Shown piece after piece: positions 45 through 58,188 of a DNA stretch of 64,000 bases. Under the pieces are notes generated by a model. That model did no database searches, was not told where the DNA came from, and was given only the letters and a program-made list of their open reading frames with translations. Within the stretch, counting starts at the first letter, position 1; each line of letters begins with the position of its first letter. This DNA comes from Escherichia phage MIZ4. The position numbers were made by a program, and so were the translations under genes. The DNA lies in sequence record OR167180; one strand, given 5' to 3'.

Positions 45-1283
45 TCAGTTTAGGGAAGTAAGGTCAAAGCTCATCATCCAACGGTAAGCATTCGGCACAG
101 GTTCTTTTACGAATGCGCCAGGATAAGTCTGCTTAGGCTGTATCTTGTTCTCCGGTACTACTTTACCCTCAGCTTTCAGAGATCCGAAGATAATAGCATC
201 CCATACTTTCATCGGGTTATAAACATGGTTAAATTTAATCTTTGCATAGAAACATAGGCTATACACCAGATCGATAAATCCACGCTTTTTATCAATCGCC
301 AGCACACGGTCAACGTCGCCGATGTTATAATCTATGTAAAGTTGATGGTTATCATCACGCAATTTCTTTAACGGACCATCATAATCAACCTTACCGATTC
401 CTGTCTCATATTCAGCAACATAATCTAACGCATATGTTGGTTGAGTCGTAAAGCTAAATTTCTTGTACAGGTCAATATAATCAAGGCTTTCGATCCCCAT
501 GATCGTAAATGCTTCACGCTCGTTGCCAAAATCATCCTGTGAGATTCGGGATTTAATCTTACCGCACGGGCTTAGACGGTTAGCGGTTCTACTTCCGAAC
601 TTATTACTGATACGTTTAATGATATATGGAATATCGAATGTTTCTGTGTTCCAGCCAGTGAAACCAACGGGTCGGTTTTCCTCAAAGAATCGGATGTATT
701 CTAACAGCAATTCATCTTCTGTGTCATAGACGTTATAAACAACGCGCTCTACAATATCAGGTCGAAGAATAGACTTGCTTGCTTCCCAGATTTCACCGCT
801 TTTTCCTTTCAAATCAAATACAAAGAAACGATCATGTACGGAATCATAATGCGTAATTGCATCGATAGGATATTTCGCTTCTTCTGGTTTAGGAAATTCC
901 GGTGCAGTGACCTCGATATCAACCCATGCTACACGGATTTTATTTCGGTCATATCGAATCTCGCCTTTATATGTATCGGACAGATAGGAGATGATAAAAT
1001 CATCCATCCCTAGTGCCTCCTGCCCCATTTCTCCCATCTTTTTACGCCATTTGTTGGCCTCGTTCATAGATGGGAATTTTTTAGCAATGCAAGGCTTGCC
1101 ATAGATATCTTTATAATTCGTAACCATACCAGGCGCGGCATGATGAAATAAAGTTGGCGTATATTCAACGTAACGCTCTTGTTCTTGTCCAGCATCATCA
1201 ATATAACGCTCGTAGATCTTATCACCCACTCGCTCACATGACAGAAAATACATAATATAAACTCCTTCACTTACGAAAGACAC
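45..1283 (-). CDS. 43: DNA polymerase (family B, T4 gp43-like), N-terminal exonuclease-domain fragment; frame ends at an in-frame TGA inside motif A
   Basis: Translation aligns by eye to the T4 gp43 N-terminus (KDIYGK, FPSM, LGMDDF, DAITHYD, LDYIDLYKKFSF, IDYNIGDV, MSFDLTSL); stop at 45-47 where T4 continues YPSII. Confidence 0.85.
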   Translation of the reverse strand: MSFVSEGVYIMYFLSCERVGDKIYERYIDDAGQEQERYVEYTPTLFHHAAPGMVTNYKDIYGKPCIAKKFPSMNEANKWRKKMGEMGQEALGMDDFIISYLSDTYKGEIRYDRNKIRVAWVDIEVTAPEFPKPEEAKYPIDAITHYDSVHDRFFVFDLKGKSGEIWEASKSILRPDIVERVVYNVYDTEDELLLEYIRFFEENRPVGFTGWNTETFDIPYIIKRISNKFGSRTANRLSPCGKIKSRISQDDFGNEREAFTIMGIESLDYIDLYKKFSFTTQPTYALDYVAEYETGIGKVDYDGPLKKLRDDNHQLYIDYNIGDVDRVLAIDKKRGFIDLVYSLCFYAKIKFNHVYNPMKVWDAIIFGSLKAEGKVVPENKIQPKQTYPGAFVKEPVPNAYRWMMSFDLTSLN

Positions 1284-22734: not shown

Positions 22735-23547
22735 TCAATCTACGTTAGTTACATAAACTTCTTGCGTATCAGAAGACTTACCACCTGAACGATCTAGGCA
22801 ATAGGTCTTATTCAACAAGACGCAGTTTAAATCATTCCGCTTGATAAAGTCAAGAAGATGATCATTTACCTTTCCCTTATGATGTGTGACATTACTGATA
22901 CCAAACTGAAAACCACGCGCCATAATAGATTCTACCCACTGATAGAATTTAATCTCTTCTTCTTCACTCCAGAACTTATTATATTCTGCCGATGTGATCC
23001 AATATGGCGGGTCCAAATAAACGAAATCACCTGGCAAGATCTCGATCTCGTCATAGCGACCAGACGTAAAACTGATTCGACCGTCTTTGTTTTCTTCCTT
23101 AAAATTCAGGACACGCTCTACCGCGTTTTCGTTAAAAGTCCGGCGACCAAAATTAGCATTAAATTCTCCCTTCCTGTTATGGCGGTTAATGTTGCTAAAA
23201 CTGTGCTGAATCAGAACAAACAGAGATAGCGGATCTGGATTCTCATTATACTTCTTACGGAATGCCATGTAAGCGTCTTTATCTTCGCGAGACAAACCAT
23301 TTTCGGCAATAATACGCTTGATCGTAGAAACCGGATCAGGACACTCGTCAATCGCTTTGTACGCGTCAATTAAGCGGTGATCATAGTCATTAGCCAGCAC
23401 ATCCCCTTCTACGTACAGAGACACGCTCAAGCCACCACAAAAGGCATCGACAAAGCGGTTATAGTGCTTAGGGAAATACTTACTAACACCAGGCAATAAC
23501 TTTTCCTTATTGCCCGTATAGGGAATTAAACCTAATGCTTTCTTCAT
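22735..23547 (-). CDS. dam: DNA adenine methyltransferase Dam
   Basis: YTGNK, NRFVD.FCGGLSV, catalytic DPPY (FVYLDPPYWI), YNKFWSEE match T4 Dam. Confidence 0.85.
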   Translation of the reverse strand: MKKALGLIPYTGNKEKLLPGVSKYFPKHYNRFVDAFCGGLSVSLYVEGDVLANDYDHRLIDAYKAIDECPDPVSTIKRIIAENGLSREDKDAYMAFRKKYNENPDPLSLFVLIQHSFSNINRHNRKGEFNANFGRRTFNENAVERVLNFKEENKDGRISFTSGRYDEIEILPGDFVYLDPPYWITSAEYNKFWSEEEEIKFYQWVESIMARGFQFGISNVTHHKGKVNDHLLDFIKRNDLNCVLLNKTYCLDRSGGKSSDTQEVYVTNVD

Positions 23548-31827: not shown

Positions 31828-32030
31828 TTACATTTAGGGCAATGCGGTTCTTTAATATAATACCCGTCTGTCTTTGGAACACTAACAGGAGCGGTTTTTA
31901 TATTGTATTCAGTGAAACAACGAAAACAAGTTACGTTTTCTACAGACTGACGTTTCACCCAATCACCGGAATATAGATCATTTTTATTTGTCATATTCAA
32001 CCACCACAATGTTAATGTCTGGAGTAGCAA
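31800..32030 (-). CDS. hypothetical protein
   Basis: 76-aa ORF. Confidence 0.3.
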   Translation of the reverse strand: MLLQTLTLWWLNMTNKNDLYSGDWVKRQSVENVTCFRCFTEYNIKTAPVSVPKTDGYYIKEPHCPKCKCRLYWSHL

Positions 32031-32439
32031 TATTAATGATCTCTTCTACACATTCCCACTCAAGGCCACCGATACCGCAACCGATTTTAGGAATATAGAA
32101 AGGCTGTATAGCACCTTCAAAAACATCATTGATAGTCTCAAATCCTTTCAGGATAGCACCATATTCAGCATTTGGACCCGGTCGGAATTGGGTATATAGA
32201 TTCACCCCGCACCAGTTATAACCATTAACTTGATGCGTCCAGACACTAAACCAACCCAGCTTTTCTACCTTACCGCGAGAAGTTTGCTTGTCAATCTCTA
32301 ACGTTTGCGGGAACTCTTTCGCGATCTTTGCAGCAATACCAGCGCCCATAGTATGAAAACAATTACAACCATGAATTAAATGACCGTTTCCTTGTTTAAA
32401 CAGGGCGATGAGATCGCCCTTTACAGTATCAATAATCAT
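31984..32439 (-). CDS. macro-domain protein (ADP-ribose binding/hydrolase fold)
   Basis: HGCNCFHTMGAGIAAKI and a glycine-rich IGCGIGGL element typical of macro domains. Confidence 0.55.
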   Translation of the reverse strand: MIIDTVKGDLIALFKQGNGHLIHGCNCFHTMGAGIAAKIAKEFPQTLEIDKQTSRGKVEKLGWFSVWTHQVNGYNWCGVNLYTQFRPGPNAEYGAILKGFETINDVFEGAIQPFYIPKIGCGIGGLEWECVEEIINIATPDINIVVVEYDK

Positions 32440-33924: not shown

Positions 33925-34260
33925 TTATCCTTTCTTAAACAAATTGCGAAGCCAGTATACAAACGGGATTTCTTTAAACTTGAATTTCTCAATAGTTAAT
34001 TCTTTAGTAGCAAGATGAATACCATAAGCATCATGTGTAACTATATGCCATTTTCTATAGTCCAAATGTGAACAACCGTCTGGATCTAGGTTAATAAGAG
34101 TTTCTCGCTCACTAGGATTATTTTTCCACAATTTTGTAATAGGATCGCACATAATTCGACCTAGCGTACCATGAATAATCTCACAACGGTAAAGTTTTCC
34201 AGCAGTGAGATAGGCGCACCCGTCATAGTCGGTATAAACAAACACTTCTTTAACACTCAT
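33925..34260 (-). CDS. small paralog family C member
   Basis: DGCSHLDYRKW motif; start at the cassette RBS (MSVKEVF). Confidence 0.35.
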   Translation of the reverse strand: MSVKEVFVYTDYDGCAYLTAGKLYRCEIIHGTLGRIMCDPITKLWKNNPSERETLINLDPDGCSHLDYRKWHIVTHDAYGIHLATKELTIEKFKFKEIPFVYWLRNLFKKG

Positions 34261-34291
34261 TTTAATACTCCTTTGTTGTTTCGATGGGGGT

Positions 34292-34320
34292 ATATTACTA
34301 CCCCCGATCATGTGTGTCAA
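34292..34320 (-). promoter_or_regulatory. early promoter cassette, TTGACA-17-TAATAT, palindrome GGGGGTA..TACCCCC
   Basis: minus strand TTGACA CACATGATCGGGGGTAG TAATAT ACCCCC then CATCGAAACAAC leader. Confidence 0.5.
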
Positions 34321-34581
34321 CTACTTTTTCAAGATTTTTTTAATTGCATTCCAAAGACCTTTATTCCCAGGTTGTTTTGGTTCTTCGATCAGTGTCCATG
34401 TTCGACCGTCTAAGTGTGCACAATTTTTAAGACAAATAAAAATCTGGTGTCCTTTATCATCACGGATATAACCACTATTCGCAAATCTTTCATGTGGTGT
34501 ATATTCATACAGTGTATTTGGTGTAATATACTTGCGGTTACTATAAGGTGTCATCACATACATCATGGTACTAACTCCCAT
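34321..34581 (-). CDS. small paralog family C member
   Basis: YEYTP..GYIRDDKGHQIFICLKNCAHLDGRTW. Confidence 0.35.
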   Translation of the reverse strand: MGVSTMMYVMTPYSNRKYITPNTLYEYTPHERFANSGYIRDDKGHQIFICLKNCAHLDGRTWTLIEEPKQPGNKGLWNAIKKILKK

Positions 34582-34757
34582 TTATCACCGCGAAGATGAG
34601 AACATACACCATCAAGAAGGATCGTAATACGATAACCTATATCATCTTTGATGTAACCGATTGTCGGTGGATGTTCGTCGTCTCGTGCCGGGGTAAAATC
34701 ATACATCTTTCCAGGCGTAATATCTTGTCCTTTATTGCTATTGGTATAAACTTGCAT
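34563..34757 (-). CDS. small paralog family C member
   Basis: YDFTP..GYIKDDIGYRITILLDGVCSHLRGDKW. Confidence 0.35.
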   Translation of the reverse strand: MQVYTNSNKGQDITPGKMYDFTPARDDEHPPTIGYIKDDIGYRITILLDGVCSHLRGDKWELVP

Positions 34758-34778: not shown

Positions 34779-35477
34779 CTAACCACGGGTATAGTGTTCC
34801 AGAACAACTGTCAGATGAATATATTCTAATAGATCTTTCCAAAAGTCAACATCTGGTTCTTCCGGCATACCGTTTTTCTTTGCCTCTTCACGCGCGAGTT
34901 TAACACGCTCGTAGAGATCTTTCAATTCTTCCCGCACATTATCAAAGGTTCTTTCTCCTAACTTACACGCTAAAATAGAAGAACGTCGCGCGAGCGGGAA
35001 TTGTAGATCACCAGTTTGATAGATTTCAAGTAGCTGATAACCAACACGCAGAGCATGAGAAAGATCTTTCCAGTTACTGAAATACTTTTCAGATTTTGCT
35101 ACCTGTTTCTTGAGATAACCAGACAAACCCCACATCCCAACATGATAGAATTTATCGCGATGTGTTCGGATGTATTCCCATTCTCTGGAGGATTCAACCA
35201 ACATGTTACTAGGCGCGTGCACCATATCAATAGCGCCGATATCACCTTTACATGCCAGATTGATAAACCGTTTTAGACTGAACATATTAACGTCAATATC
35301 GTCTTTGGTGTTCTTGATACCTTGACCGCTAGTGCTTTGGTCATAGTGTTCTTTCATAGATCCTAAGATAATTTCTTTCGCAGTCGGAACAAAGATACCA
35401 CGATAATCTTTATCTGAATTTTCAGTATCAAGGCCGTACAAGTGAGATCCGAAGACCATTTTAACCATTGTATGCAT
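34779..35477 (-). CDS. nucleotidyltransferase (DNA polymerase beta superfamily fold)
   Basis: minimal NTase signature GSHLYGLDTENSDKDYRGIF (GS..x..D.D) near the N-terminus. Confidence 0.55.
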   Translation of the reverse strand: MHTMVKMVFGSHLYGLDTENSDKDYRGIFVPTAKEIILGSMKEHYDQSTSGQGIKNTKDDIDVNMFSLKRFINLACKGDIGAIDMVHAPSNMLVESSREWEYIRTHRDKFYHVGMWGLSGYLKKQVAKSEKYFSNWKDLSHALRVGYQLLEIYQTGDLQFPLARRSSILACKLGERTFDNVREELKDLYERVKLAREEAKKNGMPEEPDVDFWKDLLEYIHLTVVLEHYTRG

Positions 35478-36137: not shown

Positions 36138-36551
36138 TTACATAGATTCCGTAAAGGTACGGGTGATAATATCAAGTTGTTGTTCGCGTGTCAAGGCGTT
36201 GAAGCGGGTAGCATAACCACTGATTCGAATTGTAAGCTGCGGGTACTTCTCAGGATGTTCAACCGCATCAAGAAGAGTCTCCCGACGCAGTACATTCGCG
36301 TTGAGATGATGACCCGCGTTACTATTTACCCCGTTATCAATTGCTAAAGGACGGAAGCTAGTTGTGTGCAGTTCCAGCGAATCGACGTCTTCTGCGGTGA
36401 TCACATGATCTTCTGCGAAAGTTTTACTAACAATTACTTTAGCGCCGATCAGTGCTTTCGGTTCGGATACCAGAATCATAGGCGCGAAATGTCCACCGAT
36501 AATAGTACCTTTATGCTCACCTTTCATGATTTGAATTGCTTTAAATTCCAT
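36138..36551 (-). CDS. autonomous glycyl-radical cofactor (GrcA/YfiD-like)
   Basis: [57 protein letters not shown] closely matches E. coli YfiD, including the RxSGY radical motif. Confidence 0.8.
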
Positions 36552-42124: not shown

Positions 42125-42329
42125 TAGACACCCCCACGACGATCAATTTCAAAAACTTTTTTTACCATCAACGAAGCATGTCACAACTGCCTCGTTGACT
42201 TCCGCAAATTGTTGTGTTACCCACTTAAGGTCAGATCGAAACAATGTTCTATTAATAACAAATGTTTTACCGCTCTTATCCTTACCCATAAATTTTGCTT
42301 TAACCATATCCAATTCCATATTATCACCT

Positions 42330-42553: not shown

Positions 42554-42931
42554 TTAAGAATATTTTACTTCGTCTACAATGTCTTTCATGACATTGATTT
42601 CCATTCCGGTCAGAACACGTTGGAACATGTGCTGCACATACGCTTTCAGGTATTCATTTGATGGCTTACTATCGAAAGTCTTTTTAGTGTAGTAGTCATC
42701 ACCGAAAGCTACTGTAATTACATTTTCGTCGTCGTTCCAAGCGATATAAGCAAATTTGCCGTTATCCCAGAAGCGAGCACTAATTGCTACTTTTGTTGAA
42801 TCGAATCCTACTTCGCTGTGAGATTCAAGAACTACTTGCGTACCAGTTTCTTTATGAATGTAGTAGCGGGATACTAAGTCAAAGTTACGGGTGTAGTGAC
42901 ATTCGAATTTATCTTTAAACATCATCATCAT
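42554..42931 (-). CDS. hypothetical protein
   Basis: start set at the ATG run after the cassette RBS; the ORF-track extension runs through the promoter. Confidence 0.35.
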   Translation of the reverse strand: MMMMFKDKFECHYTRNFDLVSRYYIHKETGTQVVLESHSEVGFDSTKVAISARFWDNGKFAYIAWNDDENVITVAFGDDYYTKKTFDSKPSNEYLKAYVQHMFQRVLTGMEINVMKDIVDEVKYS

Positions 42932-42967: not shown

Positions 42968-42997
42968 CATTATGCTATAGTCGTTTATGGTTGTCAA
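42968..42997 (-). promoter_or_regulatory. early promoter cassette, TTGACA-18-ATAATG
   Basis: minus strand TTGACA ACCATAAACGACTATAGC ATAATG then leader CACATATCGAAACGAAACAC; directly after terminator 43015-43033. Confidence 0.5.
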
Positions 42998-43014
42998 CAC
43001 CTAAAAACAAAAAA

Positions 43015-43033
43015 CCCCGAAAAATTTTCGGGG
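43015..43033 (-). terminator. rho-independent terminator
   Basis: CCCCGAAAA/TTTTCGGGG hairpin followed by a T-run on the minus strand. Confidence 0.55.
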
Positions 43034-43040
43034 TATAAAA

Positions 43041-43511
43041 TTACAGTTTGGTCGTCCACTCCAGGTCTAGATCTTCGACATACTCATGAGATCGGACAAT
43101 CTCTAAATCGAACTCTAGGTCAGTGCCAAATTTACGCGCACCAACATCATAAGAAAGCGTGATATGCGGTACATATTCAGGATAATCCCACGTCGCACCT
43201 AAAGCAGTGCCGATATCGTGTCTGAATTGCATGTAGTCGCTTTCAAATGCCAGCACAAGCGCATTAGTACTGGATTGAGTTTCAAACACTTTCAGATGGC
43301 ATAGAGAGCCTAAGAACTTCTCCCCTTCTTCTGGGATAAACGGAACATAGACACGAGAATATAAGATAGTGCTATGCAGTTTATCACGAGGAACGGCATT
43401 AGGCAGATCGTAGAACTCCTGCAATTTTTCAATGCGGTCTAGTGTATCCTCAGTGAATTTAACCGCAGCATATGTACCTTTAACGGATTCTCGAAACGGG
43501 GTCATAATCAA
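43041..43511 (-). CDS. 57B: 2H-phosphoesterase-fold protein, T4 57B/Acb1-like (candidate anti-CBASS cyclic-nucleotide phosphodiesterase)
   Basis: two H-x-T-x motifs (KLHSTILY and VPHITLSY) in a 156-aa protein immediately before 57A, as T4 57B. Confidence 0.65.
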   Translation of the reverse strand: MIMTPFRESVKGTYAAVKFTEDTLDRIEKLQEFYDLPNAVPRDKLHSTILYSRVYVPFIPEEGEKFLGSLCHLKVFETQSSTNALVLAFESDYMQFRHDIGTALGATWDYPEYVPHITLSYDVGARKFGTDLEFDLEIVRSHEYVEDLDLEWTTKL

Positions 43512-43774
43512 GCCTCCGTGATCAGTTCTACTTCCTCTTCTGCTTCTTCTGCGGCTTCGTCTTTAGGGAGAAGTGCTTTCACTTCTTCGACGATAGCATC
43601 AAGGGAAACAGTCCCGTTTTCGTCTGGCTGAATACCCAGAATGCGTACCAGTTCCATCAATACACGCTCACGATCTTTCAGTTGGCCTTCTAAGAATGCG
43701 GCCTTTTCTTGAGTGTCAAACAGACGTACTTTCAGGACATTAATCATTTGTTCATGCTGATTGGACATATTCAC
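43508..43774 (-). CDS. 57A: tail-fibre assembly chaperone gp57A
   Basis: 88 aa, coiled coil with acidic C-terminus; LKVRLFDTQEKAA resembles T4 LKSRILDTQDQAA; synteny. Confidence 0.7.
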   Translation of the reverse strand: MNMSNQHEQMINVLKVRLFDTQEKAAFLEGQLKDRERVLMELVRILGIQPDENGTVSLDAIVEEVKALLPKDEAAEEAEEEVELITEA

Positions 43775-43800: not shown

Positions 43801-44457
43801 TTAAATGTTCGCGAGAATCGCGCTTTCAAATTCTTCTAATGTACCATTATTTATGATAATGGTTTCACCGTCAATAGGCAAAATTCCTTTTTCGGTGGAG
43901 TGAGTCGATACAATACCAGTATCACGCTGAATATGCAACACCTTAGCACCCATAGCACGCACGAGAGCAATTTCAATAGGCTGACGCACATCAACCACTA
44001 CAAAATAACCTTCTTCATTTTTGCGCTTCATAAACTCATTCACGAAGAGATTACACCAATAAAGCGGATTGATCAAGTTAACCATTATATCAGTACCGAG
44101 AGTGGTTAACATGAGACGAATAGACCAGACGTTATTATGTTTTTCGCCGATCTCATTAACGACCTTGTAAATCTCAGCCAGACAATCACAAGTAAAGGAA
44201 CTACCGCCATACTTCGAATCTAGCATAAGCAGACACTGAATAAACCACTTATGCGCGGTATAGGTATCAATACCTAGATCGGCTTCTCTGTCACGCCCTA
44301 ACCCGTCAAAGTCAAGATAAGTCAGACCTAAGTCTGGTTGACATTCGCATAAGATTTCTTTGATCGGTGCTGCCAGTTGATAACTGTGTCCATCAATGAT
44401 TAACGCGGCAGTGTCTTTTCCTACTCGCTTTTTACCACAAAGTGCAATCAATTTCAT
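43801..44457 (-). CDS. 1: deoxynucleoside monophosphate kinase gp1
   Basis: MKLIALCGKKRVGKDT P-loop, LGTD, YW..LF, RAMGA.V.H match T4 gp1. Confidence 0.85.
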   Translation of the reverse strand: MKLIALCGKKRVGKDTAALIIDGHSYQLAAPIKEILCECQPDLGLTYLDFDGLGRDREADLGIDTYTAHKWFIQCLLMLDSKYGGSSFTCDCLAEIYKVVNEIGEKHNNVWSIRLMLTTLGTDIMVNLINPLYWCNLFVNEFMKRKNEEGYFVVVDVRQPIEIALVRAMGAKVLHIQRDTGIVSTHSTEKGILPIDGETIIINNGTLEEFESAILANI

Positions 44458-57032: not shown

Positions 57033-57349
57033 ATATTAAACTGCATTATACAATGGGTAAACCAAAACATCCAATGCATAAAGTGTTTTGGGGCTTGCAT
57101 CTTCAAGAAAAATGGCATGATAACTATTGGTTTTGTGACCATGATAAGAAGTGGCATTCTCAAGATGAAGTTAATGCGATGATGGAACAGGGTATCAAAT
57201 TTAATTACTCTAATTATGACCATAGCATTACTTGTATTCGAAAATTGAAACGGTTTATTCGAAAGAATCCGCAATTTAAAAACTTTGTGTTCTTTATGTC
57301 TCATGTTTATTTGGGGCATAGCGTTACCGTAACAGTAAAGGTTAAATAA
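57020..57349 (+). CDS. hypothetical protein
   Basis: 109-aa histidine/tryptophan-rich ORF. Confidence 0.35.
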   Translation: MARVNIKLHYTMGKPKHPMHKVFWGLHLQEKWHDNYWFCDHDKKWHSQDEVNAMMEQGIKFNYSNYDHSITCIRKLKRFIRKNPQFKNFVFFMSHVYLGHSVTVTVKVK

Positions 57350-58188
57350 TGGCACGACTTTCTAAACAAGAGCAAAAATTACACGATCGGGCGATGGAGT
57401 TGATTAATTCAGATCGTCCATTGACATTTGAAGAAAAAGAATTTTGCTATAACAACTATCATGGCGATGGACTAGGTGGTTCCGGTGCATTCTTTACCCC
57501 AGAATGGCTTGCCTGGGATTTTACCATTGATGCATATTGCACCGGAAAAGTATTAGATCTTTGTGCGGGGATCGGTCGCTTATCTTTTTGTATGTTACAT
57601 CGTTGTAAGCCAGAAAAGATCGTATGCGTCGAACTCAATCCAGAATTTGCGCGGATTGGCAAGCGACTATTACCGGAGGCAGAATGGATCACCAGCGATG
57701 TATTCGAATTTGAGTCAAACGAAAAATTCGATGTGGTGATCAGCAATCCACCTTTCGGTAAAATCAATACTACAGACACAAAGGATGTATTTGAATATAC
57801 TGGCGGTGAGTTTGAATTTAAGGTTATGACGTTAGGCCAGAAGTTTGCCGATGTAGGTTATTTTATTGTTCCTGCTAGTTCCGCTGGGTTTGCTTATTCC
57901 GGCAGACCTTATTATGATGAATCAGTGAAGTCTAATAAATATCTAAAATGGAGCAAACAAACTGGTTTGGTGACTTACGCCGGATGTGGGATCGATACAT
58001 CAATCTATCGCGATGAATGGCATAGTACCAACGTTTTAACAGAAGTGGTTGAGGTTCGGTATTACGAGAAAGAAGCCGTAGAAGCGCCTAAATCACGTCC
58101 CAACGAACAAATAGAAGAAAGTAAGGAGATTACCTTACCGAAACAGGAAAGCGAGTCTGGGACGCTCTCAGATTTGTTTGACATTTAA
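57349..58188 (+). CDS. SAM-dependent N6-adenine methyltransferase (gamma-class motif order)
   Basis: motif X-like GAFFTP, motif I VLDLCAGIGRLS, motif IV ISNPPFG, in that order. Confidence 0.65.
   Translation: MARLSKQEQKLHDRAMELINSDRPLTFEEKEFCYNNYHGDGLGGSGAFFTPEWLAWDFTIDAYCTGKVLDLCAGIGRLSFCMLHRCKPEKIVCVELNPEFARIGKRLLPEAEWITSDVFEFESNEKFDVVISNPPFGKINTTDTKDVFEYTGGEFEFKVMTLGQKFADVGYFIVPASSAGFAYSGRPYYDESVKSNKYLKWSKQTGLVTYAGCGIDTSIYRDEWHSTNVLTEVVEVRYYEKEAVEAPKSRPNEQIEESKEITLPKQESESGTLSDLFDI

Follow-up and report, generated by a model that had tools for sequence, protein, structure and literature searches.

The question raised by the small minus-strand gene beside gene 57A of Escherichia phage MIZ4 (record OR167180) is whether it encodes Acb1, the anti-CBASS enzyme made from gene 57B of phage T4, or the "RNA ligase" that public records of its relatives name at this place. 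Our analysis covered the whole 64,000-base stretch of DNA presented here (hereafter, the window), which differs by a single base from positions 96001..159999 of phage MIZ5 (OR167181.1, Straboviridae, Krischvirus); the sole difference is one extra A, at about 43004..43013, in the homopolymer that serves as T-tail to the terminator following the gene. As argued below from homology, fold prediction and gene order, this is very probably the Krischvirus (RB49-like) orthologue of T4 gene 57B/Acb1, working by the same mechanism. The coordinates of all features are collected in Table 1.

Gene boundaries, family membership and predicted fold

The original prediction described a 156-aa frame at 43041-43511, with two H-x-T-x motifs (HSTI and HITL), directly upstream of 57A at the position of T4 57B. 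These coordinates match exactly an uninterrupted minus-strand frame in the list of open reading frames, which yields 156 aa if read from a TTG at 43511, and both motifs were found again in the raw DNA, the translation and the alignments. The length is what most likely needs correction. An ATG at 43505, two codons past the TTG, has a GGAGG Shine-Dalgarno sequence 7 nt upstream, lines up with Met1 of T4 gp57B in the alignment, and serves as start codon in the MIZ5 annotation, whereas the TTG overlaps the stop codon of 57A; because of these four features taken together, the product is most likely a protein of 154 aa. Adjacency to 57A and the 57B position also hold. The word "upstream", however, is true only in plus-strand coordinates, because both genes lie on the minus strand, so that transcription reaches 57A first and acb1 lies downstream (3') of it.

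That the product would be an Acb1-like 2H phosphoesterase, which had been proposed from the sequence alone, is borne out by profile score, homology to a solved structure, conserved residues, predicted fold and synteny with T4. Against a cut-off of 27 bits for the Pfam family Acb1 (PF23474), the protein scores 172.4 bits (E 6e-51), with residues 11-154 covering profile positions 1-143 of 144; T4 gp57B scores 202.7 bits on the same profile. When the entire PDB was searched with phmmer, the sole protein matched was Acb1 of Erwinia phage FBB1 (entries 7T26 and 7T27, E 1.3e-42), to which MIZ4 Acb1 is 52% identical. Identity to T4 gp57B is 47% over 151 aligned residues (46-47% by tblastn). Matches of this strength (Pfam E 6e-51, PDB E 1.3e-42) lie far beyond chance. 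Relatives were found by tblastn in 1,473 phage records, T4 gene 57B among them, and a search of a collection of 5.8 billion proteins returned 64 relatives, all of which carry PF23474. Closer to home, megablast of the locus gave 100% identity with MIZ5 and 95-99% with 57 more RB49-like phages, and the protein of Krischvirus vB_EcoM-G2494 is identical to MIZ4 Acb1 at 152 of 154 positions. The exact 154-aa protein has been deposited twice in NCBI, once from MIZ5 and once in an entry of 165,509 bp with the label Krischvirus RB49, which is one base longer than MIZ5.

Two Krischvirus records depart from this pattern. In Enterobacteria phage Cognac the gene is annotated as two pieces of 64 and 82 aa (QZI93711/QZI93712), and in Escherichia phage vB_Eco_TB34 (CAH6634872) the product has 143 aa, its C-terminus being frameshifted and devoid of the lid tryptophan. 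These broken copies could be genuine pseudogenes or could stem from errors in sequencing.

The residues that define Acb1 were named in the founding work of Hobbs et al. (Nature 2022, PMC9117128). In the T4 enzyme, H44, T46, H113 and T115 form the catalytic HxT/HxT tetrad, Y12, W74, F107 and W147 are the stacking aromatics, E141 reads the adenine N6, and residues 145-152 make up a C-terminal lid (PMC9117128). When these positions were transferred to MIZ4 Acb1 by a script working through the alignment, all nine residues named in that paper proved to be kept or conservatively replaced, the equivalents being Y12, H44, T46, F74, Y108, H114, T116, E144 and W150. Seven are identical to T4 (Y12, H44, T46, H113, T115, E141 and W147 in T4 numbering); the two replacements, W74 to F and F107 to Y, bring in the very residues present in the crystallised FBB1 enzyme, so that F74 and Y108 are shared by MIZ4 and FBB1. 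The lid sequence, with its tryptophan (W150, corresponding to T4 W147), is also present in the alignment. Across 62 aligned homologues H44, T46, S50, H114, T116, L117 and Y119 are invariant. Compared with both T4 and FBB1, MIZ4 Acb1 has an insertion of two residues in a variable loop; the strand that comes next bears E144.

Structure prediction points to the same family. An AlphaFold2 model of MIZ4 Acb1, built from the 62-sequence alignment, reached a mean pLDDT of 91.3 and a pTM of 0.84, with low confidence confined to residues 1-5 and 151-154; the last residues fall below a pLDDT of 50, which in a predicted model fits what is expected of a flexible lid. In a Foldseek search of the PDB the model matched first 7T26 (E 3.7e-16, target-normalised TM 0.97, rmsd 0.9 Å over 138 columns) and second 7T27 (TM 0.93), followed by a 2H phosphodiesterase of Burkholderia phage BCSR5 (TM about 0.7) and then by the Deinococcus radiodurans CPDase and Escherichia coli LigT, with E-values of 6e-4 or weaker and TM of 0.47-0.59. 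The E-values for LigT and CPDase are thus about 12 orders of magnitude weaker than those for Acb1.

Comparison with characterised systems helps to place the protein. T4 gp57B (NP_049750.1), which is Acb1, occupies the same slot directly after 57A, which itself follows genes 3 and 1, and has 152 aa versus 154 in MIZ4; the tetrad, Y12, the adenine-reading glutamate and the lid tryptophan are identical and both proteins belong to PF23474, whereas the tail of the lid reads LEWTTKL in MIZ4 and LDWADDLK in T4. The FBB1 enzyme (7T26 apo, 7T27 in complex with 3'3'-cGAMP) comes from a different host and phage lineage (Erwinia) and, although it shares the F74 and Y108 variants and superposes on the MIZ4 model at TM 0.97 and 0.9 Å, does not have the 2-residue insertion of MIZ4. 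More distant is the BCSR5 enzyme, "2H PDE-9" (9Q2G/9Q2Y), a viral 2H phosphodiesterase by its fold, able to cleave 3'3'-cGAMP and grouped structurally with T4 Acb1 (bioRxiv 10.1101/2025.08.21.671373), but only 15-17% identical to MIZ4 Acb1; its lid is N-terminal, unlike the C-terminal lid of Acb1, and it spares 2'3'-c-di-AMP (bioRxiv 10.1101/2025.08.21.671373).

Predicted mechanism and alternative readings

MIZ4 Acb1 is an orthologue within a family that is already characterised, structurally solved and curated in Pfam, and its biology is known. In the T4 and FBB1 enzymes strain on the ligand brings about attack on the 3'-5' bond by the 2'-OH of adenosine, acid-base catalysis is provided by the HxT/HxT tetrad without any metal, and the reaction passes through a cyclic-phosphate intermediate to yield linear GpAp (PMC9117128). 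T4 Acb1 cleaves 3'3'-cGAMP, cUA, cAAA and cAAG on the 3' side of adenosine, and cGG and cA4 are left uncut (PMC9117128). T4 Acb1 and nine further homologues taken from across the family tree all cut 3'3'-cGAMP and cAAA (PMC9117128). With Acb1 present the downstream effectors Cap5, CapV and Cap4 remain silent, and deletion of acb1 impairs T4 on a host that carries CBASS (PMC9117128); in an independent transposon screen, T4 57B was dispensable on K-12 and depleted on a host with CBASS.

Because all of these determinants are conserved, we assign the same mechanism to the MIZ4 protein. It would be a small, metal-independent 2H phosphodiesterase with, by homology, 3'-5'-linked cyclic di- and trinucleotides containing at least one adenosine (among them 3'3'-cGAMP, cUA, cAAA and cAAG) as its substrates. 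The ligand would sit in a U-shaped pocket, stacked upon by Y12, F74, Y108 and W150, with E144 reading the adenine N6 and the C-terminal lid shutting over it. The tetrad formed by H44/T46 and H114/T116 would then drive the 2'-OH of the adenosine to attack the 3'-5' linkage, leading by way of a 2',3'-cyclic phosphate intermediate to a linear product with a 3'-phosphate. With the second messenger removed, the CBASS effectors would stay off and the phage would escape abortive infection. From these comparisons we infer that MIZ4 Acb1 degrades cyclic oligonucleotide immune signals, and its activity, its substrate range and its anti-CBASS effect in vivo are predicted on the same grounds. Since identity to the characterised enzymes is 47-52% and a 2-residue insertion is present, the substrate range could differ in detail. 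Our literature search returned no biochemical or genetic results on any Krischvirus/RB49 Acb1; the closest approach to direct evidence is the inclusion of Krischvirus vB_EcoM-G2494 in the screen of infected lysates in PMC9117128, a paper whose text attributes degradation of CBASS signals to T4-related phages and which gives the outcome for G2494 itself in its Fig. 1c.

It is possible to accept an Acb1-family enzyme and still suppose that its main substrate in Krischvirus hosts is something other than a CBASS signal, or that its specificity has shifted with respect to T4 Acb1; candidates would be cA3 of type III CRISPR systems, 2'3'-c-di-AMP, or a housekeeping cyclic dinucleotide. In favour of this, few viral 2H phosphodiesterases are as promiscuous as T4 Acb1, which also cuts 2'3'-c-di-AMP and thereby triggers the Panoptes defence, while evolution has led a related phage enzyme to spare this molecule (bioRxiv 10.1101/2025.08.21.671373). 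The MIZ4 protein, moreover, is just 47% identical to T4 Acb1 and carries its two inserted residues in the variable loop that precedes the E144 strand. However, the ligand contacts defined on 3'3'-cGAMP are all conserved, the adenine-reading glutamate included, and nine of the nine homologues tested across the family tree cut both cGAMP and cAAA, so that we consider this reading quite improbable. A somewhat different proposal, which concerns the Krischvirus Acb1 clade as a whole, is that its substrate range is shifted and that the enzyme may bear the entire anti-CBASS load of these phages. A shifted range may follow from the 47% identity to T4, the insertion and the different tail of the lid, and the whole load may fall on Acb1 because no Acb2 sponge is detectable (see below). 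This we judge unlikely; if true, the shift might for instance consist in sparing 2'3'-c-di-AMP, leaving Panoptes untripped, or in cutting signals that T4 Acb1 handles poorly.

The name "RNA ligase", which appears in the MIZ5, JSE, T4 RefSeq-style and RB49-labelled records and in the description of PHROG 755, would make the protein an RNA ligase or a LigT-type 2',3'-cyclic phosphodiesterase involved in RNA or tRNA repair. Besides the label itself, carried by both the PHROG description and the public records (MIZ5, JSE and T4), this reading can call upon the membership of MIZ4 Acb1 in the 2H superfamily, which includes LigT, and upon the Pnk and RNA ligase genes encoded elsewhere in the phage genome. 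Bacterial LigT/2'-5' RNA ligases and CPDases (e.g. E. coli LigT, 5LDI) do share with it the superfamily and the two HxT motifs, but they are only 11-13% identical to it at a TM of about 0.5, are longer, and do not have the Acb1 lid or the pocket residues for cyclic oligonucleotides. The only Pfam match besides Acb1 is 2_5_RNA_ligase2 (PF13563), whose score of 19.5 bits is below its cut-off of 27, and the only NCBIfam model matched is TIGR02258, whose score of 13.5 bits is below a cut-off of 65.7. Structural similarity to LigT stands at a TM of about 0.5 and an E of about 1e-3, against 0.97 and 4e-16 for Acb1. Furthermore, the T4 orthologue is experimentally a cyclic-oligonucleotide nuclease (PMC9117128), and the name "RNA ligase" stems from the PHROG family description and from no experiment. 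With both curated thresholds missed and a structure far nearer to Acb1, we rejected this identity as very improbable. Because the LigT and RNA-ligase models score below their thresholds, the public label is, on profile evidence, a superfamily carry-over and a misname.

That MIZ4 acb1 is a decaying or non-functional remnant, as the broken copies in the two records of Cognac and TB34 might suggest, has next to no probability, as its frame is intact with every catalytic residue in place, it has a good Shine-Dalgarno sequence and a terminator, and 57 phage records, as well as many metagenomic contigs, preserve a protein of 154 aa at 95-99% identity; a chance or decayed frame was thus rejected on integrity, conservation across relatives and expression signals.

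Locus organisation and other anti-defence candidates

The Acb1 reading agrees with the position of the gene. The order of genes 5 and 53, and then of 4, 2, 3, 1, 57A and 57B, is the same in the window, in MIZ5 and in T4; at the gene 3 position our family searches identified a gp19-like tail protein. The TGA stop of 57A lies 2 nt before the ATG of acb1, which suggests that translation of the two genes is probably coupled. We propose that acb1 is co-transcribed with 57A up to the terminator: the terminator-like hairpin begins 6 nt past the acb1 stop, and since this hairpin with its T-run is followed by a promoter for the next gene, acb1 appears to close a 1-57A-57B transcription unit. The sigma-70-like match inside gene 1 is a possible internal promoter for 57A and acb1, a candidate by consensus. 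No T4-type late promoter (TATAAATA) was found by sequence search between 42000 and 45400; T4 57B transcripts belong mostly to the middle/late class.

Table 1. Coordinates of acb1, its signals and motifs, and other features of the window.
Feature	Position	Strand	Basis
acb1 / gene 57B CDS, 154 aa + TAA stop	43041..43505	-	ORF, Pfam, PDB match, MIZ5 annotation, AlphaFold
GGAGG Shine-Dalgarno of acb1, within 57A 3' end	43513..43517	-	Junction sequence
First catalytic motif, H44-S-T46-I (HSTI, residues 44-47 from the ATG)	43365..43376	-	Raw sequence, translation, alignments
Second catalytic motif, H114-I-T116-L (HITL, residues 114-117)	43155..43166	-	Raw sequence, translation, alignments
C-terminal lid region, residues ~145-154, DLDLEWTTKL, including W150	43044..43073	-	Alignment
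Gene 57A, tail-fibre assembly chaperone, immediately 5' of acb1	43508..43768	-	Pfam GP57 27.7 bits; PHROG 1002 E 1.8e-26; MIZ5 annotation
Gene 1, dNMP kinase, 5' of 57A	43801..44457	-	Pfam DNMK E 2.2e-67; T4 order
Sigma-70-like promoter match, TTGACG-17-AATAAT, 10/12, within gene 1 3' end	43846..43874	-	Promoter scan, consensus match only
Intrinsic-terminator-like hairpin (43034..43014, 9-bp stem, 5 G-C pairs) and T-run	43004..43034	-	Terminator scan, sequence
Sigma-70-like promoter match, 11/12, near-consensus, for the gene after acb1	42997..42969	-	Promoter scan, consensus match only
125-aa protein directly after the acb1 terminator	42554..42931	-	PHROG search, phrog_15253 (E 3e-87)
dmd homologue (antitoxin against RnlA/LsoA), three genes downstream of acb1	42149..42319	-	phrog_2102, E 4e-25
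Macro-domain protein, annotated "phosphatase"	31984..32439	-	Pfam Macro E 5e-6
RlaP-family nucleotidyltransferase, RNA-repair type	34779..35477	-	E 2e-14
137-aa protein, C-terminal glycine-radical domain only	36138..36551	-	E 9e-16
DNA methyltransferase gene	22735..23547	-	Annotation
DNA methyltransferase gene	57349..58188	+	Annotation

Downstream of the terminator the two phages diverge, with the phrog_15253 protein in MIZ4 where T4 has ipI. The T4 gene at this counterpart position encodes an anti-GmrSD internal protein, and the slot after acb1 may be a variable anti-defence slot. Because a dmd homologue lies three genes away, several anti-defence genes seem to cluster near acb1.

T4 carries, in addition to Acb1, the sponge Acb2 (Vs.4), whereas the MIZ5 genome has no detectable Acb2/Vs.4. 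A tblastn search with T4 Vs.4 gave no match, the best E-values being 1.7 in the window and 3.9 in the whole MIZ5 genome, and the corresponding Pfam family (PF24729) was absent among 147 proteins annotated as hypothetical, 75 of them from the window and 72 from the rest of the genome; such searches may miss a very divergent sponge protein. Just 3' of regB, which is the slot of vs.3 and vs.4 (acb2) in T4, three small paralogous genes of 111, 81 and 64 aa lie in tandem at 33925..34757 on the minus strand. The second and third are related at a blastp E of 3e-12, a C-x-H-L-(D/R)-x-x-x-W motif is common to the whole trio, and none of the three has a Pfam match.

Because the literature has covered Acb1, and how widely it occurs in T4-like phages, since 2022, the assignment made here adds little scientifically, and its value lies mainly in annotation. 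In MIZ5, RB49-type and other Krischvirus records the gene is named "RNA ligase" or "hypothetical protein", and tools that read names will miss an anti-CBASS gene. For Krischvirus phages considered as therapy candidates, the assignment predicts resistance to CBASS signalling through adenosine-containing cyclic nucleotides, and possibly sensitivity to decoy-signal systems such as Panoptes.

A few observations on other genes were made along the way. Among the 72 hypothetical proteins of MIZ5 outside the window, one matches the Pfam family Tad2-like (Thoeris anti-defence 2; E 3.4e-6), one matches Phage_30_3, the family of T4 30.3/AdfN (anti-DarTG; E 1.5e-39), and one matches CYTH. Lastly, the annotation divides the DNA polymerase gene into two parts, one at the very start of the window (45..1253, minus strand) and one at 93461..95902 of MIZ5, with a gene for an HNH endonuclease between them; a mobile element thus seems to interrupt gene 43.
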